From IMG/VR virus record IMGVR_UViG_3300048033_000725, positions 5,037 to 69,036 of that record: DNA of 64,000 bases. One strand, written 5' to 3'. Positions 449 to 33,303 of the stretch are shown one piece after another. The translations under genes were made by a program, and so were the position numbers. How positions within the stretch are numbered: the first letter of the stretch is position 1; every line of letters begins with the position of its first letter. The notes beneath the pieces were generated by a model that did no database searches, was not told the DNA's origin, and saw only the letters and a program-made list of their open reading frames with translations. This DNA comes from a virus.

Positions 449-703
449 TTAGTTCTCCTTAATTTGAATTTTTAAATCTGTCGTGCCTTTGATAATGCGA
501 TGATACTCAAATGCTTCTATGGATATTTCATCACCTACATTCAGATGAATAGGCAGTTCATTGTCTCTCTGAAACTTCCAACCTTCACCTTCAAGTATCG
601 CAACTGTTCTATCTTCTCTATCTCTATGCCATACTAACTCTTCTGCTAGTACGTCTTTAGAGAAAGTTCTAATATCACTTTCGTCTTTGTACGGGTTTAC
701 CAA
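449..703 (-). CDS. Small cupin-like protein
   Basis: 84 aa; WHRDRE...EYHRIIKG resembles the cupin His motifs. Confidence 0.6.
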   Translation of the reverse strand: MVNPYKDESDIRTFSKDVLAEELVWHRDREDRTVAILEGEGWKFQRDNELPIHLNVGDEISIEAFEYHRIIKGTTDLKIQIKEN

Positions 704-3700
704 AAATATTGCCCCCCGCCTTCCAGACCGAGTTCTTTCGCATACATAGGCAATCTACATGCCCAGTAACCAGGCGTAGTTTTATCTTTTTTAGTATCGC
801 ATTGGTGACGTGCCGCAAAACTCTTTGCCGCTTCTTTGTCATTTATCTTTGCTTTAAGACCAGATGTATCACCAAAACTAACTTTGACCACATTACCCTT
901 ATCGTTTTTTACATAAACATAGAATTTCTTTGAACCGCCTCTTTTGGGGCTGTTTAGTTCAACGTCTTTCTCTTCGTCAATCCAACCTTCTACAAGAGGA
1001 ATGTCAAGGGGAACAAACTCACCCTCATAACGCTCAAACTTGCCAATATCAGTATCGTCTATCAAGTATTTATCCATTCCCTCCAGGACAACATCCAAGT
1101 CTCTTGCAACATCAAAGAGTTCGTAATACATCTCTGAATGAGGGCGATACACGCTATGAAGAGGAATGTTGTTTTCTTTGGCGTAGAATACTGCTTCTGT
1201 CGCTAGAATTTTCCTTGCTGTTTTCGCTAGAATTCTAGGTTCTAATTTAGAACCGACCATACGAATAAGTTCACCAGCGTAATAATCTAAGGAGTGTCTC
1301 TTAGTTTTTGGGTCTTCTTTTTCGATATAACGCAGAAGTCCTTGCGCCGCTTTTTCGTACTTATTCTGTTGGAAGTATTTCGCAATAAGTTCTTTAACCC
1401 AAAGAGGGGCTTCTTCTAGTTCTTCACCAGGAGTTGCTTCTTTGTATGCCTTCACAAGTTCATCAGAACCGTACTCTAGTGCTTCTCTATAGTAAGCATC
1501 TTGTCTTACTTTCAGATTGTCATCTTTTGCTTGAAGGTCACCTGGATTGTATGCTCTTTGGCGATACTCACCACGAACTTCTGCATCAGTTACACGTTCA
1601 ATGTACTCAATATCATCCATACGCTTCAGTGTCATACGAATAGCAGAACGTACTTTTGCAACGCTAACTGAATACAAATAAAACTCAGGGAACCCTTTAA
1701 TCTTTACTGCATAGGGAACAAAACGTACTTGAATATCTTTGTACGGGTCTTCATCACCTTGGTCAGGCAAATCGTTTGAAGTGACCTCGTTGATATGTTC
1801 TTGGCGAATGTCTTTAAGAGTTCTCTTTTCAAAACTCTCTTTGAATTCTTGGTGAACGTCATCTACATCAACACCAGTGTGTTTTTTGATGTAGTTTCTT
1901 GCTTCTTTCCAATCCATACCTTCTTTTTCAGCAAGTGCCTTTACTGCACCAACAACAAGAGTTCTAATTGTCGGGTGAGTAATCCACTTCCAACCAAACT
2001 TAATTGCTTGAAGTGCATCTGCTTCTTTACCAGATTGCATGTATTTGTTTACAAGACTTGTGGCAGTCATAACGTCACGAACACGGAAACCTTCGTCAAG
2101 TTCAACTTCTTCACCACGCACTTTTGCGGCAAGGTCTGCATCTGCTTTGCCCCATGTACCTTTACCTTTAGTAACAAAAGAATTAACTCTTGCAAACGCC
2201 CATTGCTGTGCAGTAGCGCCAGGTCTGTGTCCAGTCTTGTACGCCGCCATACCTCTATCGTAAACTTTCTTTAGAATACTATATGATATACCAGTCTTTT
2301 CTGCTTTGTCAACAAGTCCTTTGATTTTTTCTTCATCAAGTTCACTGAACAATTCACCAAACATTTGTTGATATTTCTTAGTGTGCTTAGATGGTTTTGT
2401 TTCTGCCGAAGCATCGCCAGGAGCAGGTCCACTCTTCTTCTTATTGAAGTGAGCGGCACGTTTTTCTTTCGTGGACTTTGACATGTCACCTGCGTAATAC
2501 TTTTTTGGCTGGCTGCCCTCTCTGTCTTTAATGTCTGGGTCTTGTGCAACACCTTCATCAACAGGAACGTAACCATACCCACTGACAACTAGTTTTTGGT
2601 CGGGTGTTTTAAAGTCCCTCTTACGCATGACTGTTTTTGCAACCATGTCGAGTTCTTTATTCTTTGCATCCCACTTCAATACGAATGGCATGTTTACATC
2701 AGTTTTAATATCATTCAATACTGCTTCTGCGTCAGGTCCGAGTTGAGCAATCTTCTTGCCGTACTGCGAATATGTCTGCTTGAACAGACGAACAAGTTCT
2801 GCAGGTGTAATCTGTTTCTTATTACGAGCATCATTTACACGGTCTAGGAAGTGCTTTGTAAACTCTACGTCAATGCCAACTTTCGCAAACAATTTATCTG
2901 CATGTTTTTCGATGGCATCTAGGTGTGCTTTTGTGACTTCACCTTCTTCTACAAGAACAACCTTTTCCCGCAACATATCGAATGAGAGACTTCTGTAGTC
3001 TCTAAATTCTTCTTCGAACAAGTCATTGATATTTTGTGGAGCCCAACTTTCGTCCAACTCCTCATCAATATTCCACTCTTCTTCTTGCTCTTTAATCTTA
3101 TCTTTGTGCATTTTCCATGCAGTAGCGTACATGACCTTTTCCCAGTCATCGCCATATCTGTCTTTGAATTCTGCCTTAGTTTCTGGCTTCTCTAACCACT
3201 TTTCGATATCAGCATCAGGTGGTGCTTTCTCTGAAATAAGTTCTTGTTCTTCGTTTAGCAACGCTTCACCAAACAGCAATTCAAACATTTCGTTGATTGC
3301 CGCCAGTTTCATACCTGTGCGAATTTTGTTAAATAGTACACGCTTATCTGTTGTACCTAGTGTATCTGGTACACCCTTTGCAAATGTATCAAAATCACCG
3401 TCAGCGGCATGCTTGCGTAGTAGTGATGCAGACATAGCATCAGCCGTCATCTCCTTTGCTTCATCACTGTCTGGGTCTGCACGATTACCAGCAGACTTGA
3501 TTTCTACTCCATTTTCAAACTCATAAAACCCGTGACGACCTTCGACACCGTTATACTTGTTTAGAAGTTTATCAAACTCACCCACACGGTCACCACCGAC
3601 AACCATGGTCACTCTTGTGTAACCCATGTCGTAAAGTTTAGATACAACGTCAAATGCTGTTTTGATTGATTTGTCTGCAACGATATTCTTCGCATAACTG

Positions 3701-3927
3701 CGGAACATCTTACGCATAAACTTCACTTTGTCAGCAAAGGAGAGTGGATTCTTTTTGGGGTCTTGAGATTGTGACGGAAAGATTTTTAGGTCAGCACCTT
3801 GCGCTTTCGCAACCGAAGATGCCGCTTTAATCAACTTTTCGTGCCCAGTAGTTGGTGGGTTAAATCTACCAAAAGAAAAGACAACACTCTTTTCCTTTGC
3901 TTCGCCCAAATCTTTATACTTTTTCAT
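697..3927 (-). CDS. Multidomain protein with N-terminal cytidyltransferase-like (HIGH-class) nucleotidyltransferase; candidate head-packaged polyprotein
   Basis: FSFGRFNPPTTGHEKL (HxGH-type), VVGGDR and MSAS motifs in the first ~207 aa, then several small domains separated by acidic linkers. Confidence 0.8.
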   Translation of the reverse strand: MKKYKDLGEAKEKSVVFSFGRFNPPTTGHEKLIKAASSVAKAQGADLKIFPSQSQDPKKNPLSFADKVKFMRKMFRSYAKNIVADKSIKTAFDVVSKLYDMGYTRVTMVVGGDRVGEFDKLLNKYNGVEGRHGFYEFENGVEIKSAGNRADPDSDEAKEMTADAMSASLLRKHAADGDFDTFAKGVPDTLGTTDKRVLFNKIRTGMKLAAINEMFELLFGEALLNEEQELISEKAPPDADIEKWLEKPETKAEFKDRYGDDWEKVMYATAWKMHKDKIKEQEEEWNIDEELDESWAPQNINDLFEEEFRDYRSLSFDMLREKVVLVEEGEVTKAHLDAIEKHADKLFAKVGIDVEFTKHFLDRVNDARNKKQITPAELVRLFKQTYSQYGKKIAQLGPDAEAVLNDIKTDVNMPFVLKWDAKNKELDMVAKTVMRKRDFKTPDQKLVVSGYGYVPVDEGVAQDPDIKDREGSQPKKYYAGDMSKSTKEKRAAHFNKKKSGPAPGDASAETKPSKHTKKYQQMFGELFSELDEEKIKGLVDKAEKTGISYSILKKVYDRGMAAYKTGHRPGATAQQWAFARVNSFVTKGKGTWGKADADLAAKVRGEEVELDEGFRVRDVMTATSLVNKYMQSGKEADALQAIKFGWKWITHPTIRTLVVGAVKALAEKEGMDWKEARNYIKKHTGVDVDDVHQEFKESFEKRTLKDIRQEHINEVTSNDLPDQGDEDPYKDIQVRFVPYAVKIKGFPEFYLYSVSVAKVRSAIRMTLKRMDDIEYIERVTDAEVRGEYRQRAYNPGDLQAKDDNLKVRQDAYYREALEYGSDELVKAYKEATPGEELEEAPLWVKELIAKYFQQNKYEKAAQGLLRYIEKEDPKTKRHSLDYYAGELIRMVGSKLEPRILAKTARKILATEAVFYAKENNIPLHSVYRPHSEMYYELFDVARDLDVVLEGMDKYLIDDTDIGKFERYEGEFVPLDIPLVEGWIDEEKDVELNSPKRGGSKKFYVYVKNDKGNVVKVSFGDTSGLKAKINDKEAAKSFAARHQCDTKKDKTTPGYWACRLPMYAKELGLEGGGQYFW

Positions 3928-3951: not shown

Positions 3952-5208
3952 TCACTTAGTCCAATTTTTTGCGGCAGTAAAGTTGTTGTACGAAAATGTC
4001 AGTCTGTCTACCAGTTTTACTGCATCGCCACCAACTTTGTCAACTGCTACAAACCCCTCAGGTTCAGTTACTTCATAACCGTTCGAGGTTCTATTGAACG
4101 TTTTAGTCATTTGTTTCACGCTTTCTAATTTACGAACAAGCATAACCTTTGCTTCGTTAATCAGAGAGTAAAATGCAAATACGGCAGTTAAAGTCTTTTT
4201 ATATTTTTGCGTCAACCTCATATATTCATCACGCAACTGCGCTTTTTGGTCTTTCGCTTTCTGTGTCTTTACTTTTGCGATTTGCTTCTCATTAAAATAT
4301 GTCTCTATGTATTTAGTATATTCAGCCGCGGCAGAAGCAGGTTTTACATTACTTTGTTGTCTAATTTTGCTATTAATGTATGTCTTAATAGATGCACCAG
4401 CAATGCCTCCAGTCATAGATTCCTGCATTTTGAGGATTTCTTTAAATTCTTTTGAGTTAATCCCATTGAATGCTTTGCCCGCTTTTGAGAGTAAAACATC
4501 AAGTTCTGTTGTCTCTTTTGAAGTCAGCGTAGCATTACCCGAAACGTCTTTGTATTCTGCATCCTGATACCAAAGACCAGACACTTTACCAAAACCAGAT
4601 ACGTCAATATTGAATGTCGCACTCATATCTTGTAGTGTGGGTCCACCCGAATATTTGGTGTGAATGATGATACCCATCTTTGATTTGCTAATCTCTTTGC
4701 CTAAATCACTATCCGCAGGTACTGCGTAAACAATTGTGTTTGGTTGAAATGTGACTAGTTTTTCACCTTCAATCGTTTCAGTCTTTAAGTCCTGTGAAGT
4801 ATACATCAAGTCGCCTTGATATACATCGCCACCAAGTTTCAATTTCTGTAGATAATCAAATGAGATTTTTAGTTTTGTTGACAGGTCGCCTGAAGTGTCT
4901 GCATCAATATCAGCATGTGACTTGTAAACTTTAGGGTTCTTATTGAAGATACCCTTCTTCGCAACAAAGAATTGACCATCTTCTGGGTCAATACCAAAGA
5001 AGACTGCGGGCGCACCATCCCACTTTACAGTGACATTCACTTTACTTTTTGTGTCTCCACGGAGCATGTCACGCAATGAACGTAAGAAGTTAATCGCCGC
5101 ACGACCGCCAGCAATACCATTGTTAAACAGTTCATCTTCAAGGTGTTCGAGGTGTAAATTTTTACCTGCCGCCTCATCCAACTGTTGGTGCTGTAAAAAA
5201 CTCTTCAT
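3952..5208 (-). CDS. DUF6267-like protein with ATP-dependent ligase/nucleotidyltransferase-superfamily motifs
   Basis: NLHLEHLED N-terminus; KWDG (motif I), YQGDLMY (III), EPEGFV (IV), VKLVDR (V). Confidence 0.7.
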   Translation of the reverse strand: MKSFLQHQQLDEAAGKNLHLEHLEDELFNNGIAGGRAAINFLRSLRDMLRGDTKSKVNVTVKWDGAPAVFFGIDPEDGQFFVAKKGIFNKNPKVYKSHADIDADTSGDLSTKLKISFDYLQKLKLGGDVYQGDLMYTSQDLKTETIEGEKLVTFQPNTIVYAVPADSDLGKEISKSKMGIIIHTKYSGGPTLQDMSATFNIDVSGFGKVSGLWYQDAEYKDVSGNATLTSKETTELDVLLSKAGKAFNGINSKEFKEILKMQESMTGGIAGASIKTYINSKIRQQSNVKPASAAAEYTKYIETYFNEKQIAKVKTQKAKDQKAQLRDEYMRLTQKYKKTLTAVFAFYSLINEAKVMLVRKLESVKQMTKTFNRTSNGYEVTEPEGFVAVDKVGGDAVKLVDRLTFSYNNFTAAKNWTK

Positions 5209-6164
5209 CGTTTAACTACCTTTACATTACGGTTGATACGAGATTTCTTAACTGCAAGAACACGCAAACCAGGGATTTTAGAACCCTTGCGTGAACTATC
5301 ATTTCTAATCAAGAAATACACTTCGTATTCACCCTTCAATTCTCTTGGGCTTGTAATAATCTTTGTTACATCAATTATAACGCTTTCTGTGTCTGCGTCA
5401 ATCTTATATTTACCATTAAATGTCTTTTCCAAAACAGCACCATTCGGCAGAATATCTGTACCGAATACAACGTTCTTTACTTCTTTTGCGTCTGCTTTAA
5501 CTGCTAGATTTGGGGTGAGTGTAAATACGGAACGAACTTTAGGGTGCGGTTCAACTTTGACATTACCCGCTTTTTGTTCACGTTCAACGATTGCTTTCAT
5601 ATCTTTACCCCAATAAGAATCCGCAGATTCCCACATTTCTGCTTTATCTTTTTTGAGGGAGAGGGGGAACTTATTGCCGTCAATGTCTACGATATTTACG
5701 TCTGATTTTTTGCGGTCTTTAGTATCACCACCAACTGCTTCTGCACGAACAGCCATAGGAACAGTAAAATCTTTACCCTTCGCTTGGAATACTAGATTGA
5801 GTGGACCGTCAGCAAGGGCAGTGTTAATCATATTGATTAGAGTGTATTCGTTTTGAATACCTGCACTTGCTTTGCCTTGTTTTGATTTTGGTGCCGCACC
5901 GATAGCAAATGAACCGATACGAACCATACCTACTGAGGATGAACCAAAGTCTTGGTCATATACTGCATCAAATGCAGAAAAGTGTTGTGCGATTTTCTCA
6001 AGCAACTCAACACGATTTTCATCAGTCAAAACTGAAAAACGCTTTGAACTGATTTTCTTAAAATCTGTCAGACCGAGTTCTTTTAGGGAGTTCTGGAGTT
6101 CGCCAACATCGGCTGGCATAGCAACTGCCTGCTCCATAAACTGAGTGAATGTTTTTGCTACCAT
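5205..6164 (-). CDS. Putative PD-(D/E)XK-like nuclease
   Basis: GIQNE...KSDVNIV...PLSLKK fits the E...D...SxK variant of the restriction-endonuclease fold. Confidence 0.5.
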   Translation of the reverse strand: MVAKTFTQFMEQAVAMPADVGELQNSLKELGLTDFKKISSKRFSVLTDENRVELLEKIAQHFSAFDAVYDQDFGSSSVGMVRIGSFAIGAAPKSKQGKASAGIQNEYTLINMINTALADGPLNLVFQAKGKDFTVPMAVRAEAVGGDTKDRKKSDVNIVDIDGNKFPLSLKKDKAEMWESADSYWGKDMKAIVEREQKAGNVKVEPHPKVRSVFTLTPNLAVKADAKEVKNVVFGTDILPNGAVLEKTFNGKYKIDADTESVIIDVTKIITSPRELKGEYEVYFLIRNDSSRKGSKIPGLRVLAVKKSRINRNVKVVKR

Positions 6165-7996: not shown

Positions 7997-8689
7997 TTAC
8001 ACCATTGTGACATGACTTTTTACCAAAAAGTTCTCATTATTACCAATATTTGTTAGTGCATATGGGTATGTCCACACTGACGGAAATACAACCAAACGAC
8101 CAGCCTTTGCACTTACTGTATTCTGCACATCAAAAAACCCAATTTCAAAGTCATCATCTGTTGTGAGAAACCAAATGAATGTCAAGTAACGCTTCACCTG
8201 AGCAAGATTAGATACGTCAACACCGATATCTTTGTAATCGTTTTCATCACGAAACTGATACACATAGAAGTCTTCAAGCACAGATTGTTCAGGAAACTGT
8301 GATTGGTGTGGGGCAACAGATTTCGCATACACAGGCATTGTTGCTTCAACAATCTGTCTCTGAGTATATGAAACCTTTTCCCACGATGCAGACTTTTCAA
8401 TGTTGCATGATACAAAATTCTCTGTACCACTATCACGCACAATATGATTATCAGCATCTTCACGGAACAGTTTAATAATCTTATCGCAATACGACTGAGG
8501 AAGTGCATCATCAAATACTTTGATGTACTTGGTCAATCTAAAATCGACTTTAACCTCTTCTTCATCAACTGTGTCTGCAAGGTCTTCTCCAGGAAGTTCG
8601 AATTTGTCTTCTGGTGATTGTGCATCTTCTATCGGCATCTCCAGAGAGATTGCCCCACCTTTTGCGCTTGCTAAACCATTACTCTTCAT
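7997..8689 (-). CDS. 2OG-Fe(II) oxygenase-like protein with degenerate metal ligands
   Basis: YIKVFDDAL...RYLTFIWFL...AKAGRLVVFPSVWTYP matches phage 2OG oxygenases, but the HxD and distal His positions read IGVD and YPY. Confidence 0.6.
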   Translation of the reverse strand: MKSNGLASAKGGAISLEMPIEDAQSPEDKFELPGEDLADTVDEEEVKVDFRLTKYIKVFDDALPQSYCDKIIKLFREDADNHIVRDSGTENFVSCNIEKSASWEKVSYTQRQIVEATMPVYAKSVAPHQSQFPEQSVLEDFYVYQFRDENDYKDIGVDVSNLAQVKRYLTFIWFLTTDDDFEIGFFDVQNTVSAKAGRLVVFPSVWTYPYALTNIGNNENFLVKSHVTMV

Positions 8690-11732: not shown

Positions 11733-11761
11733 ATTATACCCTATAACGTATCAAATGTCAA
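11733..11761 (-). promoter_or_regulatory. sigma70-type promoter for uvsX
   Basis: Perfect TTGACA-17-TATAAT with upstream A-tracts. Confidence 0.9.
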
Positions 11762-16455: not shown

Positions 16456-16732
16456 TATTAATAATTCTCACAGTCTTATCTTGAAGGGTTTCGTCAACTA
16501 CTACTTGGCAACTTAGACGACTATTATACTCCACATTGTCTGCAATGTCAAGGGTAAATTTTTCGTCATCTGAAGGAGGTTCGATTGGCGGGTCTATCTT
16601 AACGTGACATGTAGAGCATATATTCTCTCCACCACAGTCACCCATGACACCAAGGGCAAGCATAAGATTGTCTCCTATGCTTGCCTCTGCTTGTATTTTC
16701 TCACCATTTCTAATAATATAAAATGTCACCAT
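16439..16732 (-). CDS. 2Fe-2S ferredoxin (adrenodoxin/ISC type)
   Basis: CGGENICSTCH...SRLSCQ. Confidence 0.88.
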   Translation of the reverse strand: MVTFYIIRNGEKIQAEASIGDNLMLALGVMGDCGGENICSTCHVKIDPPIEPPSDDEKFTLDIADNVEYNSRLSCQVVVDETLQDKTVRIINNEILY

Positions 16733-21861: not shown

Positions 21862-21890
21862 ATAATAGCAGGTAATGGGAGGAATGTCAA
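21862..21890 (-). promoter_or_regulatory. sigma70-type promoter
   Basis: TTGACA-17-TATTAT, with the -35 box inside a GGGAGG/CCTCCC inverted repeat. Confidence 0.75.
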
Positions 21891-21908: not shown

Positions 21909-23066
21909 TTAGAAGGGTGCATATTCTTCAACTGCACCTTCTTCTTCTGTGGTACCGACTTCACCATCGACCTTAGTGTAAAGGTCGAGAAATGAGGTCT
22001 TAGTTTCTTCATCAAAGCGGTTCACACACAGTTCAATGGCTTTCATTTTGTCACCAAAGATTGAGTATGCTTTCACAATGTGAACCAGACGGCGGGTTGC
22101 GATAATCTCATCAACGCCACCCTCATAGAAGGTCTTGCGAATGATATCAGCCCAATCGACCAACTTACCGATGAAGCCATCATCTTCAAGGTTCAGACTA
22201 TCGAAAACCTTCTTCAGGATTTTCTTTTCAACTGTATTGCTGGCATATTCTTGCTCAACAGTAATCGGGAAACGCTCAAGGAACGCTTCATCAAGGATTT
22301 GAGCGGCGATGAAACGACCGTCATCAGAACCCTTACCTTTAGTGTTGGCAGTAGCAACAATGTTGAAACCAGGAGCAGGTTCGACAATCTCACCAGTCTT
22401 TTTATTGATGTAAGGCTTGCCTTCTGCAATCGCCTGAATGGCAAGCAACTTGTTACCACCACGGTCGATTTCATCAAGAACTAGAACAGCACCACGGCGC
22501 ATCGCATTCAGTACAGGACCTTCACGATAGACCACGTTACCATTGACTAGTGTATTGCCACCAATCAAATCGTCTTCATCAGTTTCGATAGAGACAGACA
22601 CTTTAATCATTTCACGCCCAGAAGCGGCACATGCCTGTTCAACCATGAACGTCTTACCGTTACCAGACAGACCAGTAACCATGACAGGATAGAACATCTT
22701 AGAAACAAGAATGTTTTTCAAATCATTGAAGAAGCCGAAAGGCACATAGAGAGGGTCTTTCGCAGGAACGAAATTCTCAGTAACAGTCTGGGTCATAGTC
22801 GCAGGTTTCATTGGGATAACTGCGGCAGCCGCCATAGCAGGTGCTTCTACTACTGGAGCAGGAGTTGCAGTCTGTGGTTGATTAACCATCGGGAGGCGAT
22901 ACTGACCACGCCCGACACGGTTTTCGTTCTTGGTGAAGATAAAGCGTGGGCGCTTGGCACCAATCTCTTCAGCAAGGTCGCAGATTTCTTGCTTGGTAAC
23001 AACAGCACCGAATTTTTCGAATGCAGTTTCAACGAAGCGGGTTTGTTCAGAAGTAAGATTTTTCAT
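21909..23066 (-). CDS. CobS-like MoxR AAA+ ATPase
   Basis: GLSGNGKT, LDEID, ATANTKG, AFLERF; start at ATG 23066. Confidence 0.9.
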   Translation of the reverse strand: MKNLTSEQTRFVETAFEKFGAVVTKQEICDLAEEIGAKRPRFIFTKNENRVGRGQYRLPMVNQPQTATPAPVVEAPAMAAAAVIPMKPATMTQTVTENFVPAKDPLYVPFGFFNDLKNILVSKMFYPVMVTGLSGNGKTFMVEQACAASGREMIKVSVSIETDEDDLIGGNTLVNGNVVYREGPVLNAMRRGAVLVLDEIDRGGNKLLAIQAIAEGKPYINKKTGEIVEPAPGFNIVATANTKGKGSDDGRFIAAQILDEAFLERFPITVEQEYASNTVEKKILKKVFDSLNLEDDGFIGKLVDWADIIRKTFYEGGVDEIIATRRLVHIVKAYSIFGDKMKAIELCVNRFDEETKTSFLDLYTKVDGEVGTTEEEGAVEEYAPF

Positions 23067-23123
23067 AATATAGCCTCTTTCAGAGTTTTCACATTGGGAC
23101 ACTTTCGCCCCATCAACATATAC

Positions 23124-23152
23124 ATTATAGGCTATCTAGCCTAAGAAGTCAA
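23124..23152 (-). promoter_or_regulatory. sigma70-type early promoter
   Basis: TTGACT-17-TATAAT. Confidence 0.85.
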
Positions 23153-23319
23153 GGATTATTTTGGTTCTTTTGGTGGTTTTTTTGGTTTTTTTCATCAATG
23201 AGCATATCGAAAATCAGTTTCGTATTTTCAATCTGTTCTCGGTTGCCGTTTCGAACTGCCATCATATGATTATCATATGCCATACGAAGGTCTGGGTCGA
23301 GGTCTTTTCTTTCTACCAT
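23149..23319 (-). CDS. Small hypothetical protein (56 aa), below the ORF-track cutoff
   Basis: MVERKDLDPDLRMAYDNHMMAVRNGNREQIENTKLIFDMLIDE...; TGATG overlap with the upstream stop. Confidence 0.55.
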   Translation of the reverse strand: MVERKDLDPDLRMAYDNHMMAVRNGNREQIENTKLIFDMLIDEKNQKNHQKNQNNP

Positions 23320-25505
23320 CATGCCGCAATCTCCATCAAGCGGTTCAACAATACACGGTTCGCTGTTTTGCTTTTAGAGTTTTTCATAAACGCAGTACGC
23401 AGTTTTGCTTTACTTGCACCAGCATCAACTTGAAGACCATCATCATTGGTCATCATATCGTCACCACCAGGGATTAAGAAGTAAGACTGGAAGCCAGCAT
23501 TTTTCACTTCAAGGAACTTGTTGGTACGAATGCTTTTCACTACGTCTTGGTCATAGATACCGTAGCGGGCAGCCTGACCACGAATTTCACGAGGCTTGTT
23601 ATCCATCACAAAGAACCCGATTGTGTTTACGCCGCAACGGTCACCAATAATTTCGATTAGAGTGTTAGACAGTGTTCGGTCTTTAACCTGATATTGCTGT
23701 TTAGTGACAGTATCTTGAACAACCGTCTGGGTGCGATAAGAACCACAGTAAACACCAGCGGTTGCTTTTTCACCGGCATACTCGACAACAGCCTCCGTAC
23801 CGTGACTGTCGCCATCAGTTAGAACGACCAGATTAGCAATCTGAATGCGTGATGCCTCAACAAACTTTTTAATCACTGAAGGCATACAAAGCAATGCATC
23901 ATCAAGAGGTGTACCACCCAGACCCAAAGGCTGTGGGATAAAGAATGAATAGTAACGACCATTTTCAAGACATTCACGCATTGCCATCATACCGAGGCAA
24001 GCATCGTTAAAATCAGAGAGTTTCATTTTGCTATCAAACAAGGTCATCAAAGCAAACTCACGGTCACCAGGAACAAGGGTACCAACTGGGTTTTGAAGCA
24101 ACTTTTCTTTAATCGCCTTGTAGTCTTGTGTTTCACCATAACCATAGTAGTGGTCACTGAAAGCATAGACTTCAAATGGGATTTTAACTTTTTTGCAGAA
24201 CATTACGAGGTTCAGCAACTGGTCGATTGTTGAAGACATGTTTGGTGCCATAGAACCAGACCAATCAAGTAGCATTACGAACCCGTGGTTCTTGCCACCT
24301 TGAATTGTAGTAACACGCTTAAAGAGGTCATCATTATACTTGTATGAGAAGATTTTCGCCATATCAAGTTCACCAGATTTTGCAGTGGTTGCCCGCTTGA
24401 ATTCGTCTGCCTTTTTACGCATTTCGAATTCTTTGACCATGTAGTTCACGACCTTCTGGTTTGAAGCACGCCACTCAGTCCACTTGGCTGTGATAGTGTT
24501 TTTGATTGATGGGTTGTCTTGCCAAATTTTTCGGTATTGCTTATTCACCTCAGCAAAGGGAACGACAAAATCTTTGGCATCAACAGTACCCATTGTCAAA
24601 TACTGATATTCTTTACCAGTGTTTTTGATAAGAGAACCTTCGTTTTGACGGAATGCTTTATCAGTCTGACTTTCAACAACCTCTTCAGGAGAAGTTGGTT
24701 CATCATTATAATCATCAAGGTCATAGTCATCATCTTCATAATCACCGTAACCTGCACCGTCTTCATCACCGTCTTCATCAGAAGCAGTGCCTTGACCATT
24801 CATATCAAAATCTTCTTGGTCACCCTCATCATCACCGTTCGCATCAGAACCGTCAGTTTGAGTATCTTCATTTTCTTGGGCGTCATCATTTTGAGCGCCT
24901 TTAAGAAGTTCCTCAACTTCATCTTCTAATTGCTCTTCAGCCTGTTCGATTTGCTGACCGTAAAGAGTTTCGGCAATCTCAACAACATCATCCCAAGTCT
25001 CAGCATTGGCAATTTTTTCAACCCACTCAGCCTCTTTACCCTCAAACTTGAGATTTACAAGAGTACCGAGTTTAAAGTGAAGATTGATACGGTCAATGAA
25101 AGCCATTTGAGTGATATCAGTACCAGCGATGCCGAAGAAATCACGCTGGAGCAAATCTGCATACCCCTCACGATATGCTTTCGCAAGACCGGGGTATTTT
25201 GCTTTAATCTTCTTTTCAATCCGAGCGTCTTCAATGACGTTCAGGTAGCCTTTCATTACACCAGACTGGTCATTAACAACGGCATCATGCCACCCATCTT
25301 CTGGAGTCCAGAGGGCGTGCCCAACTTCGTGGCTTGTCATCAAATCATAGAGATTGACGTTCAGACCGTCTTCTAAATTAGGAAGAGTAAGAACACGATT
25401 TTTAACATCAAACATCGCAGTTGGGACGTTTTGATGCTGTACAGTAATATTCTCTGTCGCCATTAGTTTGGCGAGTTGAGATTTTGTATTTGCTAGTTTG
25501 TTCAT
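23319..25505 (-). CDS. CobT-like protein: HExxH peptidase-like N-terminus, acidic linker, VWA domain
   Basis: HEVGH, NVIEDARIE, MIDAS DWSGSM...GGTPL...LTDG; start at ATG 25505. Confidence 0.85.
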   Translation of the reverse strand: MNKLANTKSQLAKLMATENITVQHQNVPTAMFDVKNRVLTLPNLEDGLNVNLYDLMTSHEVGHALWTPEDGWHDAVVNDQSGVMKGYLNVIEDARIEKKIKAKYPGLAKAYREGYADLLQRDFFGIAGTDITQMAFIDRINLHFKLGTLVNLKFEGKEAEWVEKIANAETWDDVVEIAETLYGQQIEQAEEQLEDEVEELLKGAQNDDAQENEDTQTDGSDANGDDEGDQEDFDMNGQGTASDEDGDEDGAGYGDYEDDDYDLDDYNDEPTSPEEVVESQTDKAFRQNEGSLIKNTGKEYQYLTMGTVDAKDFVVPFAEVNKQYRKIWQDNPSIKNTITAKWTEWRASNQKVVNYMVKEFEMRKKADEFKRATTAKSGELDMAKIFSYKYNDDLFKRVTTIQGGKNHGFVMLLDWSGSMAPNMSSTIDQLLNLVMFCKKVKIPFEVYAFSDHYYGYGETQDYKAIKEKLLQNPVGTLVPGDREFALMTLFDSKMKLSDFNDACLGMMAMRECLENGRYYSFFIPQPLGLGGTPLDDALLCMPSVIKKFVEASRIQIANLVVLTDGDSHGTEAVVEYAGEKATAGVYCGSYRTQTVVQDTVTKQQYQVKDRTLSNTLIEIIGDRCGVNTIGFFVMDNKPREIRGQAARYGIYDQDVVKSIRTNKFLEVKNAGFQSYFLIPGGDDMMTNDDGLQVDAGASKAKLRTAFMKNSKSKTANRVLLNRLMEIAA

Positions 25506-25537
25506 AATGTATCTCACTCTTTTCACTCTATATATGC

Positions 25538-25626: not shown

Positions 25627-25655
25627 AATATAGTGCATGATGAGGCATTTGTCAA
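25627..25655 (-). promoter_or_regulatory. Second, tandem sigma70-type promoter
   Basis: TTGACA-17-TATATT. Confidence 0.55.
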
Positions 25656-25679: not shown

Positions 25680-26363
25680 TTATTTGATAGCGATTGCACC
25701 CACGAACAAGTGGTTCTGCCAGAACGTCTGAACACTTTCGAAACCAGCAATCTCAAGCATTTCATTAAGTTCAGACCATGTGTTGGGTTTGAGCATGTGT
25801 CGTAGTGTTTGCTCTTTATCCATGATATCTTCGGCTTCGAAACTCTCACGCTTGAAATCGTAGTACATGAAAGTAAGCATGTCTTGTACCTTTGAGGAAC
25901 AGGAATATGTCTTTTCACCAAAAATAAATGCACCACCTGGATTCAGTGCTTCGTACACTTGGTTAAGTGTTTCTTGTCGGTCTGCACGAGGCATGAACTG
26001 CAAAGTGAAGATTGAAGTAATCAGAGATGCATTGTACATATCTGCATTACGAATATCTTCACTTTGCAACTCAAGGTCATCGGTCTCATATTCCATCATA
26101 CGCTTCTGCATATCTTCATAGAAACCAGCCGCACATTCAATACCAACGTAATGTGCGTCTGGTGCGAAAGTACGATTTTGGTCAATCATTGCACCAAGTG
26201 TCTTACCTGTCGAACAACCCAAGTCATATACATGTGTGTGGTCTTCAACAAAGTATTGTGACATTTTTACAATATCATCGTGTAGTGTAGAATAGTGACG
26301 AATTGATTTGTCAATGTGGTTATCGAAACCCTCATCACGGTGTGCAAAAGTAAAATCAGCCAT
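25680..26363 (-). CDS. cmoA: CmoA-like carboxy-S-adenosylmethionine synthase
   Basis: FDNHIDKSIRHY, VYDLGCSTG, FTLQF, LNPGGAFIFGEK, and C-terminal similarity to CmoA. Confidence 0.8.
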   Translation of the reverse strand: MADFTFAHRDEGFDNHIDKSIRHYSTLHDDIVKMSQYFVEDHTHVYDLGCSTGKTLGAMIDQNRTFAPDAHYVGIECAAGFYEDMQKRMMEYETDDLELQSEDIRNADMYNASLITSIFTLQFMPRADRQETLNQVYEALNPGGAFIFGEKTYSCSSKVQDMLTFMYYDFKRESFEAEDIMDKEQTLRHMLKPNTWSELNEMLEIAGFESVQTFWQNHLFVGAIAIK

Positions 26364-27495
26364 TATTAAATTCCTTTAGAATGTTCTCATATATTGAAGT
26401 AGCAACTGCTTTATACATCAATGGTGCAACTGCACGACCAAGACGCTCAACTTGAGCATCAAATTCACCTGTTAGAATATAATCTTCTGGGAAACCCATC
26501 AGACGTTTACATTCTTTGATTGTCAATTTACGATTTGCTTCTGGGTGAAACACACCAGACATACCACGCTTCTGACCTTGCTGAGTTAGAGTTGGAGAAG
26601 GCATATCAGGACACGGACGTATCATATTGAAACAACTTGCCTTCGGGTTCCAATCTCTAAACTGTGGGTCACTTGGTTTTGTGTGCTTTGGTGGGTTGAA
26701 CGGAAGAGGTTCAATAAACTTCTTCTGGTATGAACCCTCGACAAAATCAAGCAACATCTGAACTTCTTCTTCATCATTTTCAATATCAGCAAGTGCTTCA
26801 CGCATACTAATATGCTTTTCTATAGTCGGTTGAGGGAATACATTATGCAAATTCAACCAAGAGATACCAACTTTATCGCATACATCTTCACGAACACAAA
26901 TAAAGATTGTGCGTTCTCTTGCTTGAGGTACACCATAATTTGCACCATTCAAAACTTCATAAGTTACATTATAACCAATCTCTTCGAATGCATTGATAAA
27001 CGCATTTAATTTACCTTTCGCTTCACCGAAAGTAATGCCCTTAACATTTTCTGCAACGATAACTTTTGGCTGTACACCTTCAGCAATGCGAATAAATTCA
27101 TAAAAGAGGTCTTCGATTGCGACTTGCTTTTTACCGTCTGAGTAGTTCTTCTCTTTACCCCAACCCTTTTCTCGCTTTCCTGCGACTGAGAAAGCAGAGC
27201 AAGGAGGTGAACCGTCAAGTATGTCGAGTTCGCCTTTAGCAACTCCCGCCATATTAAGAAAGTCTTCTGGTGTGTATTTTTTGATATCATCGACAAGTAC
27301 CTTTGTGTCAGGGAAGTTTGCAGTATATGTCTCCACTGCCGCCTCTACAAACTCATTAATCAAAAGTATGTTCGAACCAGCCAAACGATAACCAAGAGAC
27401 GAACCGCCGCCCCCTGCAAAGCAACTAATTGTAGTAAATTTTTTCTGAGATGATAGTGCTTTCACATCATCAACAGTATATTTTTCATATCTCAT
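26356..27495 (-). CDS. C5 DNA cytosine methyltransferase homolog; probable carboxymethyltransferase
   Basis: FAGGGG (I), GSPPC (IV), ENV (VI), QARER (VIII), RLMGFP (IX), GRAV (X; normally GNAV). Confidence 0.88.
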   Translation of the reverse strand: MRYEKYTVDDVKALSSQKKFTTISCFAGGGGSSLGYRLAGSNILLINEFVEAAVETYTANFPDTKVLVDDIKKYTPEDFLNMAGVAKGELDILDGSPPCSAFSVAGKREKGWGKEKNYSDGKKQVAIEDLFYEFIRIAEGVQPKVIVAENVKGITFGEAKGKLNAFINAFEEIGYNVTYEVLNGANYGVPQARERTIFICVREDVCDKVGISWLNLHNVFPQPTIEKHISMREALADIENDEEEVQMLLDFVEGSYQKKFIEPLPFNPPKHTKPSDPQFRDWNPKASCFNMIRPCPDMPSPTLTQQGQKRGMSGVFHPEANRKLTIKECKRLMGFPEDYILTGEFDAQVERLGRAVAPLMYKAVATSIYENILKEFNNG

Positions 27496-27500
27496 ATCAA

Positions 27501-27548
27501 CACTTTTCTGCGGTTATTTTAAGTATTATCGCACACTTTTATGCGGTT
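27501..27548. repeat. 15-bp direct repeat flanking the promoter -10 box
   Basis: CACTTTTCTGCGGTT (27501-27515) and CACTTTTATGCGGTT (27534-27548). Confidence 0.7.
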
Positions 27549-27553
27549 GTCAA
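27525..27553 (-). promoter_or_regulatory. sigma70-type promoter for the MTase-cmoA pair
   Basis: TTGACA-17-GATAAT with TG extension. Confidence 0.7.
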
Positions 27554-28362
27554 GTAAAAAGTGAAGATGAGGGCGAATAATTTACATAGTCCCGAACCAA
27601 ATCCATAGTGCGACCTCTATTGCGATAATTCAACTCATTGTCTTCAAGCAACTTTTCAAAGTATTCTGGAATACCTGCGACAAGTTGAAGGTTTGCATGT
27701 TTACGTTTCTTGGGCAGTTCGTTGAATTCTTCATATGCTTCAATGATTGGTGCTTTCTGATATGGCTTGTTAAAGAAGTCATGGTCATACTGCATCATCC
27801 AGTCTTTCACACTTTCACGCACATAAGGTGCGACTAAGTTTGCCTCAATCTCTTCGCATAACTGCTCTTGCTGTCTAATGCCTGCTGGATTGTCTGCACC
27901 GAAGTAGTCATTGCGAAACTTGTCGAACAACTCTTTCGTATGTTTAAAATGAATATTCGCACGTTTAGATACGCCATACCACCCATCTGCCGCAACACCC
28001 GAAAGTACATGCTTCTCTTTAATATGCGGATAAACATACAAGAAAGGGAATGTACATTCAACGTGAGTTTTTTTCTTACAATCGTAATATCGCATCAACC
28101 GCAAAAAGTCATCTTTAACATTACTCACTGGAACATCAATTTCATGGTGGTCCCAACCAAAAATCTCCGCCGCTTCTTTTGCGGCAATACTGTCTGGAGT
28201 TTCTTGACCATTCACATACATTGTATATGTATGAACATTCTTACCCAAACGCATTGCAGAAAATGCACATGTTAAACTATCAACACCACCAGACATTAAC
28301 ACGGCAACATCCTTGCTTGGTGCTTCTTCATCTACAATCTGTGTGATTAGTTTATCAATCAT
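27550..28362 (-). CDS. Asparagine synthetase-like ATP-dependent amide ligase (synthetase domain only)
   Basis: PP-loop LMSGGVDS, LSGVAADGWYG, APY; no N-terminal glutaminase domain. Confidence 0.8.
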   Translation of the reverse strand: MIDKLITQIVDEEAPSKDVAVLMSGGVDSLTCAFSAMRLGKNVHTYTMYVNGQETPDSIAAKEAAEIFGWDHHEIDVPVSNVKDDFLRLMRYYDCKKKTHVECTFPFLYVYPHIKEKHVLSGVAADGWYGVSKRANIHFKHTKELFDKFRNDYFGADNPAGIRQQEQLCEEIEANLVAPYVRESVKDWMMQYDHDFFNKPYQKAPIIEAYEEFNELPKKRKHANLQLVAGIPEYFEKLLEDNELNYRNRGRTMDLVRDYVNYSPSSSLFT

Positions 28363-28772
28363 ATCTTACTCACCTGTACGCCACTTTTAAGTAAAAAGTT
28401 AATCCCATCTCTACTTTTATAGTGGTCCCTATAATATATTGTTTTTATGCCTGACTGATATATCAGTTTTGCACAATCAATGCATGGAGATGCAGTACAG
28501 AACAATATTGCACCATCTGCGCTTTCTGTGCTTTTCGCAATCTTTGTGATTGCATTCGCCTCAGCATGTAATACTTCTCTCTTAGTAACTAAACCAGATT
28601 TCGTTTCTTCTTCACATACGTTAGTCCAACCAGCGGGCATTCCATTATAACCAATACTAACAATCTTATCATCTTTTACAACCACACACCCAACTTTAAG
28701 ACGTACCGCAGAAGATAACTGTGCGTATACTTCTGCGGCATCCATATGGGCTTTAATGAACTTCTGCTTCAT
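28359..28772 (-). CDS. cd: dCMP deaminase
   Basis: GYNG, HAEANAI, SPCIDC; start at ATG 28772 (MKQKFIKAH). Confidence 0.93.
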   Translation of the reverse strand: MKQKFIKAHMDAAEVYAQLSSAVRLKVGCVVVKDDKIVSIGYNGMPAGWTNVCEEETKSGLVTKREVLHAEANAITKIAKSTESADGAILFCTASPCIDCAKLIYQSGIKTIYYRDHYKSRDGINFLLKSGVQVSKI

Positions 28773-29139
28773 CACTATCCTCAATTTGCATTTGCTCAAG
28801 TGCCTCTGGTGGCATTTCTTCATACAAGTCTTGGTTCTTATGCCAAACATTGAATACATCTTGAACGTTAGCGTGGCGAGTTGTTTCCATATCGGCAACT
28901 TCTTCGTAGATTTTCTTTTCAAACTCACCGAATGTTGGGTTCATCCACATATGAAGTTCATTGCCAGTTTCCATATCAGTCACTTCAACAAATACGATTT
29001 CTTGCGTCTCTAAAACAAACACGGCTGTCATAGCATCGTCAAACTGTAGCACCCAGGAATCGCCAAAATCTTCAAACATAAATGGTCCGCCCTCAACAAT
29101 GCGTAACCCTGTTGCTTCAATCAAGTCATTAAATTTCAT
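28753..29139 (-). CDS. Acidic hypothetical protein
   Basis: 128-aa ORF with AGGAG RBS. Confidence 0.65.
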   Translation of the reverse strand: MKFNDLIEATGLRIVEGGPFMFEDFGDSWVLQFDDAMTAVFVLETQEIVFVEVTDMETGNELHMWMNPTFGEFEKKIYEEVADMETTRHANVQDVFNVWHKNQDLYEEMPPEALEQMQIEDSDEAEVH

Positions 29140-33274: not shown

Positions 33275-33303
33275 ATCATACTACATGTTGATACGTTTGT
33301 CAA
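33275..33303 (-). promoter_or_regulatory. sigma70-type promoter for gp55
   Basis: TTGACA-17-TATGAT. Confidence 0.8.

Follow-up and report, generated by a model that had tools for sequence, protein, structure and literature searches.

A predicted CmoA-CmoX-CmoY DNA hypermodification cluster in an uncultured marine T4-like myovirus

Do three adjacent genes of an uncultured marine virus encode a pathway that hypermodifies cytosines in DNA and, if so, is this pathway new or a further occurrence of a known one? The genes lie in a stretch of 64,000 nucleotides (hereafter the window), which corresponds to positions 5037-69036 of a linear IMG/VR-type virus record (IMGVR_UViG_3300048033_000725; 69,036 bases, estimated to be 38% complete). 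Within it, 25680-28362 is exactly filled by three consecutive minus-strand open reading frames (ORFs) of 270, 379 and 227 amino acids. An earlier reading of the letters alone (the original prediction) had taken these three adjacent, co-oriented genes for an asparagine-synthetase-like ligase without a glutaminase domain, a homologue of C5 DNA methyltransferases, and a CmoA homologue whose gene overlaps the stop codon of the methyltransferase gene. It had further proposed that carboxy-S-adenosylmethionine (Cx-SAM) serves to form 5-carboxymethylcytosine in DNA, which is then amidated at the expense of ATP. Our analysis bore out the gene assignments and, through characterized homologues, the proposed route, and we conclude from homology that the cluster very probably gives this uncultured marine T4-like myovirus a CmoA-CmoX-CmoY module for DNA hypermodification. 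On the other hand, the novelty implied at that time did not hold, because the pathway and thousands of candidate sequences had already been published (PMC12783734).

The published system is the CmoA-CmoX-CmoY pathway of Synechococcus phage S-B43 (Yang et al., Nat Commun 2025; PMC12783734), the cyanophage precedent to which the original prediction had referred. SpCmoA converts S-adenosylmethionine (SAM) and prephenate to Cx-SAM. SpCmoX uses Cx-SAM but not SAM to produce 5-carboxymethyl-deoxycytidine (5cxmdC) in duplex DNA at GC motifs, and in Escherichia coli forms 5cxmdC only when a CmoA is present. In the 8YF3 structure, Arg350 of SpCmoX, which replaces Asn304 of M.HhaI, contacts the carboxymethyl group of the cofactor. 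SpCmoY, an asparagine-synthetase homologue, uses ATP and glycine to turn 5-carboxymethylcytosine (5cxmC) into the glycine amide 5-glycylcarboxymethyl-deoxycytidine (5gcxmdC), which is present in S-B43 virion DNA while free 5cxmC is absent, and carboxymethylated DNA is resistant to HhaI (PMC12783734). For SpCmoY, the paper also designates pocket residues as binding the carboxylate of glycine (Supplementary Fig. 8). The same study retrieved 5,615 candidate CmoX sequences (with SPPC and R350), 4,257 CmoA sequences and 2,251 AMP-forming ligases from IMG/VR v4, UniProtKB and MGnify-derived phage sequences, and the window record may already have been counted in its IMG/VR survey. In the literature that we searched, no natural phage system of this type other than that of S-B43 was found (PMC12783734). 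Both the concept (a Cx-SAM donor, a carboxylate handle and an AsnB-like ligase) and its broad occurrence had thus been published before, which leaves little scientific surprise. By its sequence relationships, the window cluster is one more instance of this established system, here from a marine T4-like lineage outside the cyanophages and with a different gene order.

Assignment of the three genes

First, we analyzed the 379-residue protein, which matched PF00145 (C-5 DNA methylase) from end to end (E 5.6e-59) and belonged to phrog_116 (DNA methyltransferase). Its best match among PDB sequences was SpCmoX (8YF3, E 3.7e-110), followed by M.HaeIII (5.4e-25), and BLASTP aligned it with SpCmoX over the full length (51% identity over 380 residues). 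The residues of SpCmoX were mapped onto the window protein via a 31-sequence alignment, and this mapping was validated by the agreement between the numbering of the S-B43 translation and that of the paper. The S-B43 region was included as locus L001, and its gene coordinates match those in the paper's source data (PMC12783734). We found that the catalytic SPPC motif is kept (S96-P97-P98-C99 in the window, equivalent to S95-P96-P97-C98 in SpCmoX) and that R354 is the counterpart of SpCmoX R350, in place of the motif X Asn. The cofactor contacts F26, E48, F49 and D70 (SpCmoX F25, E47, F48 and D69) are kept as well, but also occur in the methyltransferase of phage Melnitz and are hence non-discriminating. 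Judged by its sequence, the window protein has every feature by which CmoX was recognized in the published survey.

The R350 column is more discriminating with respect to Melnitz (MZ577097), which we used as a negative control. Apart from Melnitz, all 29 aligned sequences that extend to this column have Arg there (those of the window, 26 viral-contig loci, S-B43 and Synechococcus phage S-CRM01; one further locus ends before the column and was left out of the count), whereas the Melnitz enzyme has Leu. By capsid, Melnitz is the closest relative in culture (65%), and its C5-methyltransferase, 43% identical to window CmoX, is followed by a 328-residue protein with a TET/JBP oxygenase domain (L003:4010-6194; PF12851, E 3.6e-11). 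Thus, Arg at this column appears to follow the Cx-SAM gene context and not the phage lineage. No match to CmoA or CmoY was found in 10,194 bases (L003) of the 141,548-base Melnitz record, the CmoA search being confined to these bases, and no CmoY match from the whole record was among those listed by organism. The Melnitz methyltransferase and oxygenase probably constitute a 5-methylcytosine (5mC) oxidation pathway, a different chemistry.

Second, the 227-residue protein had TIGR00740 (CmoA) as its best NCBIfam family (E 1.5e-37, 129.6 bits) and fell into phrog_4752 (E 1.3e-64), the same PHROG as SpCmoA. It is 56% identical to the biochemically validated SpCmoA over 229 residues, i.e. over the full length (BLASTP), and aligned end to end with Haemophilus influenzae YecO (1IM8) and E. 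coli CmoA (4GEK) in the PDB (E ~8e-27). Its start codon lies inside the methyltransferase ORF, and the two genes overlap by 8 nt (26356-26363), as seen in the junction sequence; the stop of cmoY and the start of cmoX are separated by 54 nt.

Third, the 270-residue ligase matched PF00733 (Asn_synthase) over residues 17-138 only (E 7.7e-17), and a Pfam search found no glutaminase domain in it. It shares phrog_26038 (unknown function) with SpCmoY, to which it is 49% identical over 263 of 270 residues (BLASTP, E 5e-91). This pairwise value is far past the 1e-56 threshold used for clustering in the paper, although the two kinds of E-value are not strictly comparable. The PP-loop reads S24-G-G-V-D28-S29, and its S24, G26, D28 and S29 are among 61 columns that are invariant across 16 CmoY homologues including SpCmoY. 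Other invariant positions with charged or polar residues include K97, K98, T99, E102, K133, H138, K140, K143, R150, K199, K203, H222, R249 and R251. With 15 sequences as input, AlphaFold2 yielded a model (mean pLDDT 75.7, pTM 0.79; low confidence at residues 130-140 and 246-270) whose best structural matches were synthetase domains, namely those of beta-lactam synthetase, E. coli AsnB, human ASNS and carbapenam synthetase (TMq 0.61-0.71, 14-18% identity). The modelled fold is consistent with adenylation of a carboxylate followed by amide formation.

Two other identities of the ligase were considered and rejected. A glutamine-hydrolysing AsnB does not fit, as TIGR01536 gave 47.6 bits against a cut-off of 267.1, covering only profile positions 239-368, and the glutaminase domain is missing. 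QueC was rejected since the match is limited to the PP-loop region (residues 20-81) and reaches 25.5 of the 150.3 bits required by TIGR00364.

These assignments bear on another explanation, namely that the three genes are unrelated neighbours: an ordinary SAM-dependent 5mC methyltransferase, a CmoA that acts with host CmoB in the synthesis of 5-carboxymethoxyuridine (cmo5U) in tRNA, and a ligase of another kind, such as a QueC-like or NAD-synthetase-like enzyme. The PHROGs label of the CmoA family ("tRNA methyltransferase"), the weak PP-loop matches of the ligase to QueC (PF06508), ThiI, MnmA and NadE/NAD synthase, and the incompleteness of the genome might be taken in its favor. However, Arg354 stands in place of the canonical motif X Asn, and wild-type SpCmoX accepts only Cx-SAM (PMC12783734); the synteny of the genes is tight and conserved; no CmoB is encoded on the 69-kb record; and the QueC-type matches are confined to the first ~60-80 residues, far under full-length cut-offs. 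We therefore regard this explanation as extremely improbable.

Predicted pathway and the modified base's identity

In the module that we propose, CmoA would convert SAM and prephenate of the host to Cx-SAM. CmoX would flip the target cytosine out of the helix, attack its C6 with Cys99 and pass the carboxymethyl group from Cx-SAM on to C5 while the carboxylate of the cofactor is held by Arg354, so that 5cxmC would arise in duplex DNA after replication. CmoY, by means of its PP-loop, would use ATP to adenylate the carboxylate of 5cxmC and then couple an amine to it; with glycine, the product would be 5-glycylcarboxymethylcytosine. DNA modified in this way should withstand restriction enzymes of the host, and perhaps other defences that target DNA.

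The nature of the amine deserves separate consideration. The original prediction had listed ammonia, an amino acid or a polyamine as possible donors, and among these the characterized SpCmoY uses the amino acid glycine (PMC12783734). By comparison with that enzyme, the amine coupled by window CmoY is quite likely at least an alpha-amino acid, and glycine itself is slightly favored. The main competitor to a mark identical to that of S-B43 is a pathway that is the same up to 5cxmC but ends differently, in that CmoY couples another amine (an alpha-amino acid, ammonia or a polyamine) and/or CmoX recognizes a motif other than GC, so that the final base or its distribution would be unlike that in S-B43. 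The 49% identity between the two CmoY proteins leaves room for such a difference, as does the recognition region of CmoX, which has diverged and is longer than that of SpCmoX. On the other hand, the 61 invariant columns, many of them charged, are common to the window clade and SpCmoY, the E-value for the pair lies far beyond the published clustering threshold, and neither enzyme has a glutaminase domain, according to our Pfam search for the window protein and to the paper for SpCmoY (PMC12783734). Taken together, a different amine or motif seems possible but is the less probable outcome.

In C5 methyltransferases, the target is recognized by the variable region that lies between motifs VIII and IX. 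Comparison of window CmoX with SpCmoX by region gave 64% identity in motifs I-VIII (131/204) and 45% in motifs IX-X. In L012-L029, the CmoX homologues shown (e.g. L012:4807-6015) carry an insertion of ~27 residues just past motif IV (after "REKGW"), which window CmoX does not have; SpCmoX has a different insertion of 8 residues nearby. The number of GC dinucleotides in the window, 2,559, shows no depletion relative to the expected 2,517, so base composition gives no hint on the target motif.

Several points weigh against our interpretation or limit its details. For the window phage, the whole pathway is deduced from homology and not from chemistry. In the variable, target-recognition region of CmoX (window residues 206-318), identity to SpCmoX drops to 35% (35/101, with 13 gap columns); this region resembles SpCmoX no more closely than it does the Melnitz enzyme, which does not belong to a Cx-SAM context (29%). 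Because of this low identity, GC specificity is not transferable and may serve as a default guess only. The assignment of glycine likewise derives from overall similarity to SpCmoY. In addition, window CmoA scored under both NCBIfam equivalog cut-offs (TIGR00740, 129.6 vs 193.3 bits; NF011995, 101.6 vs 285 bits). Since the validated SpCmoA also falls under both (115.6 and 102 bits, respectively) and scores even lower than the window protein on TIGR00740, these cut-offs describe the bacterial enzymes of the tRNA pathway and not the activity. Finally, CmoB or further modification genes could sit elsewhere in the genome. Neither a CmoB-type protein (PF08003), nor a protein with a ParB_N domain (a family reported on many CmoX contigs), nor a chorismate mutase (PF01817) was found on the whole 69,036-base record, in line with the original prediction that no cmoB is present in the window; as this record represents ~38% of the genome, these proteins are not excluded from the remainder. 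The lack of a chorismate mutase on the record means that prephenate would be supplied by the host.

It is conceivable, albeit tentative, that this non-cyanophage CmoX/CmoY clade writes a mark unlike that of S-B43, placed at a motif other than plain GC and carrying an amino acid other than glycine, which would be a hypermodified cytosine not described so far. This lineage may also supply tools for site-selective DNA carboxymethylation and amide tagging, in the form of natural CmoX variants whose recognition region differs and of CmoY variants.

Gene order in related phages and comparison with known systems

The original prediction had suggested a survey of gene neighbourhoods. A scan of viral contigs with window CmoY yielded 30 loci (42-95% identity), whose neighbouring genes were called by local tblastn with the window proteins. 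In all 27 loci that extend past cmoY, the next gene downstream is cmoX (the other three loci end at or within cmoY). Of the 26 loci that run on past cmoX, 21 have cmoA immediately downstream of it (one locus ends within cmoX). The arrangement cmoY-cmoX-cmoA is not due to chance. In the remaining five loci (L023-L027), cmoY-cmoX is followed after ~300 nt by a CobT-like gene, with no cmoA in between, and no cmoA match was found elsewhere on any of these five contigs, whose records are 6-33% complete. Possibly, such phages obtain their Cx-SAM from the host.

The latter group is relevant to another explanation, in which phage CmoA mainly depletes or diverts host SAM and thereby blunts SAM-dependent defences, DNA modification being secondary. 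Such a role was raised as an open question in the Discussion of the S-B43 study (PMC12783734). The five relatives that keep cmoY-cmoX without cmoA at that position show that the DNA pathway can apparently draw on another source of Cx-SAM, which separates the two roles. On the contrary, the translational overlap of cmoA with cmoX and their adjacency in most relatives are most simply read as cofactor supply. Thus, SAM depletion as the main function appears very unlikely, and a CmoA that feeds the DNA modification module remains our preferred reading.

Comparison with known systems placed the window cluster closest to S-B43. The two share the same three families, at 56% (CmoA), 51% (CmoX) and 49% (CmoY) identity, and the same PHROGs; both belong to T4-like marine myoviruses and have the cluster within a region of replication genes. 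They differ in gene order (Y-X-A in the window, A-Y-X in S-B43), in the divergent and longer recognition region of window CmoX, in the phage lineage, as the window capsid is nearest to those of Methylophilales and Pelagibacter phages (65-60%) and not to cyanophages, and in the presence in the window of a promoter-like site and a conserved direct repeat between cmoY and cmoX. S-CRM01 (NC_015569) has a cmoA-cmoX pair (CmoA 57% and CmoX 48% identical to the window proteins) with Arg at the R350 column, but in the order A-X and with no cmoY adjoining; its predicted product is therefore unamidated 5cxmC.

More distant systems share single steps. The tRNA cmo5U pathway of E. coli CmoA/CmoB has the Cx-SAM synthase step in common with the window cluster (4GEK, 1IM8), whereas the predicted acceptor enzyme in the window is a C5 DNA methyltransferase homologue and not CmoB. 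In the engineered M.MpeI N374K, a basic residue replaces the motif X Asn and lets a C5 methyltransferase use Cx-SAM, but this enzyme is artificial, CG-specific and without a downstream ligase (PMC12783734). AsnB, beta-lactam synthetase and carbapenam synthetase (1CT9, 1MC1 and 1Q15) have the adenylating synthetase fold (TMq 0.65-0.71) and a PP-loop in common with window CmoY, which differs from them in its low identity (14-18%), in lacking the N-terminal glutaminase and in its predicted substrate, a carboxylate on DNA. Separately, CmoX-like matches were observed in Erwinia/Dickeya jumbo phages (e.g. NC_061441 and NC_048054), where they are in two pieces over ~2,034 bp, the gene being longer or interrupted; a CmoY-like gene (34-36% identical) lies ~15 kb from the CmoX-like gene and is not adjacent to it.

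Phage lineage, flanking genes and promoter-like sites

A PHROG scan of 54 further ORFs revealed the gene set of a T4-like myovirus in the window, including genes for replication and repair (DNA polymerase, clamp, clamp loader, UvsX/UvsY/UvsW-type proteins, gp46/47-type nuclease, RegA and the late sigma factor) as well as for structure and packaging (major head protein, portal, sheath, tube and terminase). The cmoY-cmoX-cmoA cluster is located in the early/replication module, flanked on one side by a gp46-like gene, together with a peptide-deformylase-like gene and a deoxycytidylate (dCMP) deaminase gene, and on the other by a CobT/CobS-like pair (Table 1). The major capsid protein was closest to that of Methylophilales phage Melnitz (64.7%), followed by Pelagibacter phages Mosig and HTVC008M (61-59.5%); cyanophages did not exceed 60%. 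Because the nearest capsids are those of Methylophilales and Pelagibacter phages and not of cyanophages, a heterotrophic marine bacterium is the probable host. A 4-kb query had no near-identical match in 50,697 phage records, and by its sequence the virus is an uncultured marine T4-like myovirus without a close cultured relative. Our analysis extends a known hypermodification to this lineage, whose nearest relatives by capsid infect Methylophilales and SAR11-type hosts. Such phages are abundant ocean viruses, and modified cytosines could bias sequencing, restriction-based and nanopore-based surveys. No tRNA genes were found in the window, and PADLOC returned only generic methyltransferase and QueC matches there.

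Table 1. Coordinates of the predicted genes and sequence elements in the window
Feature	Position	Strand	Basis
cmoY homologue, predicted ATP-dependent amide ligase, 270 aa	27550..28362	-	AsnB-type synthetase (PP-loop) domain only
cmoX homologue, predicted DNA cytosine C5-carboxymethyltransferase, 379 aa	26356..27495	-	PF00145, SpCmoX homology
cmoA homologue, predicted carboxy-SAM synthase (SAM + prephenate to Cx-SAM), 227 aa	25680..26363	-	TIGR00740, SpCmoA homology
dCMP deaminase, neighbour	28359..28928	-	PF00383 (E 3.7e-22, residues 59-166); phrog_174
Peptide-deformylase-like protein, 227 aa	29152-29835	-	PF01327 (E 3.3e-11); no PHROG match
CobS-like AAA_5 ATPase and 735-aa CobT-like protein	21909-25526	-	phrog_249, phrog_459
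Sigma-70-like promoter candidate, TTGACA-17 nt-GATAAT, TG before -10	27525..27553	-	Consensus match, 11/12 positions
Two direct copies of CCGCA[T/G]AAAAGTG (CCGCANAAAAGTG repeats)	27546-27534 and 27513-27501	-	Only 2 exact matches in the 64-kb window
TTGACA-N16-18-TANNNT sites (examples)	11733-11761, 16523-16551, 21862-21890, 25627-25655, 33275-33303	mostly -	Consensus match

The dCMP deaminase gene touches the cluster, its TGA overlapping the ATG of cmoY as ATGA in the junction sequence. It adjoins cmoY in only 8 of 30 related loci (L005-L011 and L030) and was therefore treated as a neighbour outside the conserved module. As listed, the deaminase ORF begins with GTG, and its first ~50 codons overlap, in another frame, an ORF of 128 amino acids on the minus strand (28753-29139) that is conserved in relatives (35-79% identity). 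The true start of the deaminase is probably an internal ATG. The peptide-deformylase-like, CobS-like and CobT-like genes belong to the auxiliary repertoire that T4-like phages of the sea typically carry.

A promoter-like site overlaps the stop of cmoY upstream of cmoX, and cmoX-cmoA may be driven by this sigma-70-like promoter of their own. Its -35 hexamer does not differ between the window and four relatives; the -10 region does, with the TAnnnT pattern kept. The -10 box is flanked by the two direct repeats, one in the promoter spacer and the other between the -10 box and the cmoX ATG, and both copies are kept in L005, L007, L009 and L010 with 0-2 changes each, though the -10 region between them varies. 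The pair is possibly an operator or the remnant of a 33-nt tandem duplication. With the same reserve as for an altered mark, the paired CCGCANAAAAGTG repeats could act as an operator through which the expression of cmoX is timed or placed under feedback. In the whole window, TTGACA-N16-18-TANNNT sites occur 15 times vs 4.2 expected, a number reached in 0 of 100 shuffles, and 12 of the 15 are on the coding strand. Several were observed in intergenic gaps of the replication module. Their sequences are consistent with candidate sigma-70-type early promoters.

Analysis of environmental data revealed the 2.7-kb stretch, or parts of it, in 20 listed runs from 9 studies (seawater, marine, marine plankton and marsh metagenomes). 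Two DNA runs that we examined cover the whole 4.5 kb around it: X1 is mostly at least 99% alike and possibly the source sample, and X3 is a variant with many substitutions. In metatranscriptome runs X19 and X20, six contigs of ~175 nt fall on the 4.5-kb stretch at a depth of ~2 (three on cmoY and the others on the dCMP deaminase gene, the 128-residue ORF and the cobT-like gene), which may represent DNA carry-over and were not counted as expression.

Elsewhere in the window, a 230-residue protein (7997-8689, minus strand) belongs to the 2-oxoglutarate- and Fe(II)-dependent (2OG-Fe(II)) oxygenase family phrog_61 (E 3.7e-14), with no Pfam match at E 0.001. A trio of minus-strand genes is conserved in phages. 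It comprises a protein of 1,076 amino acids (697-3927) with an N-terminal cytidylyltransferase-like region (phrog_3041/395) and DUF5824, a DUF6267 protein of 418 amino acids (3952-5208), and a protein of 319 amino acids (5205-6164) that belongs to a PHROG of unknown function.

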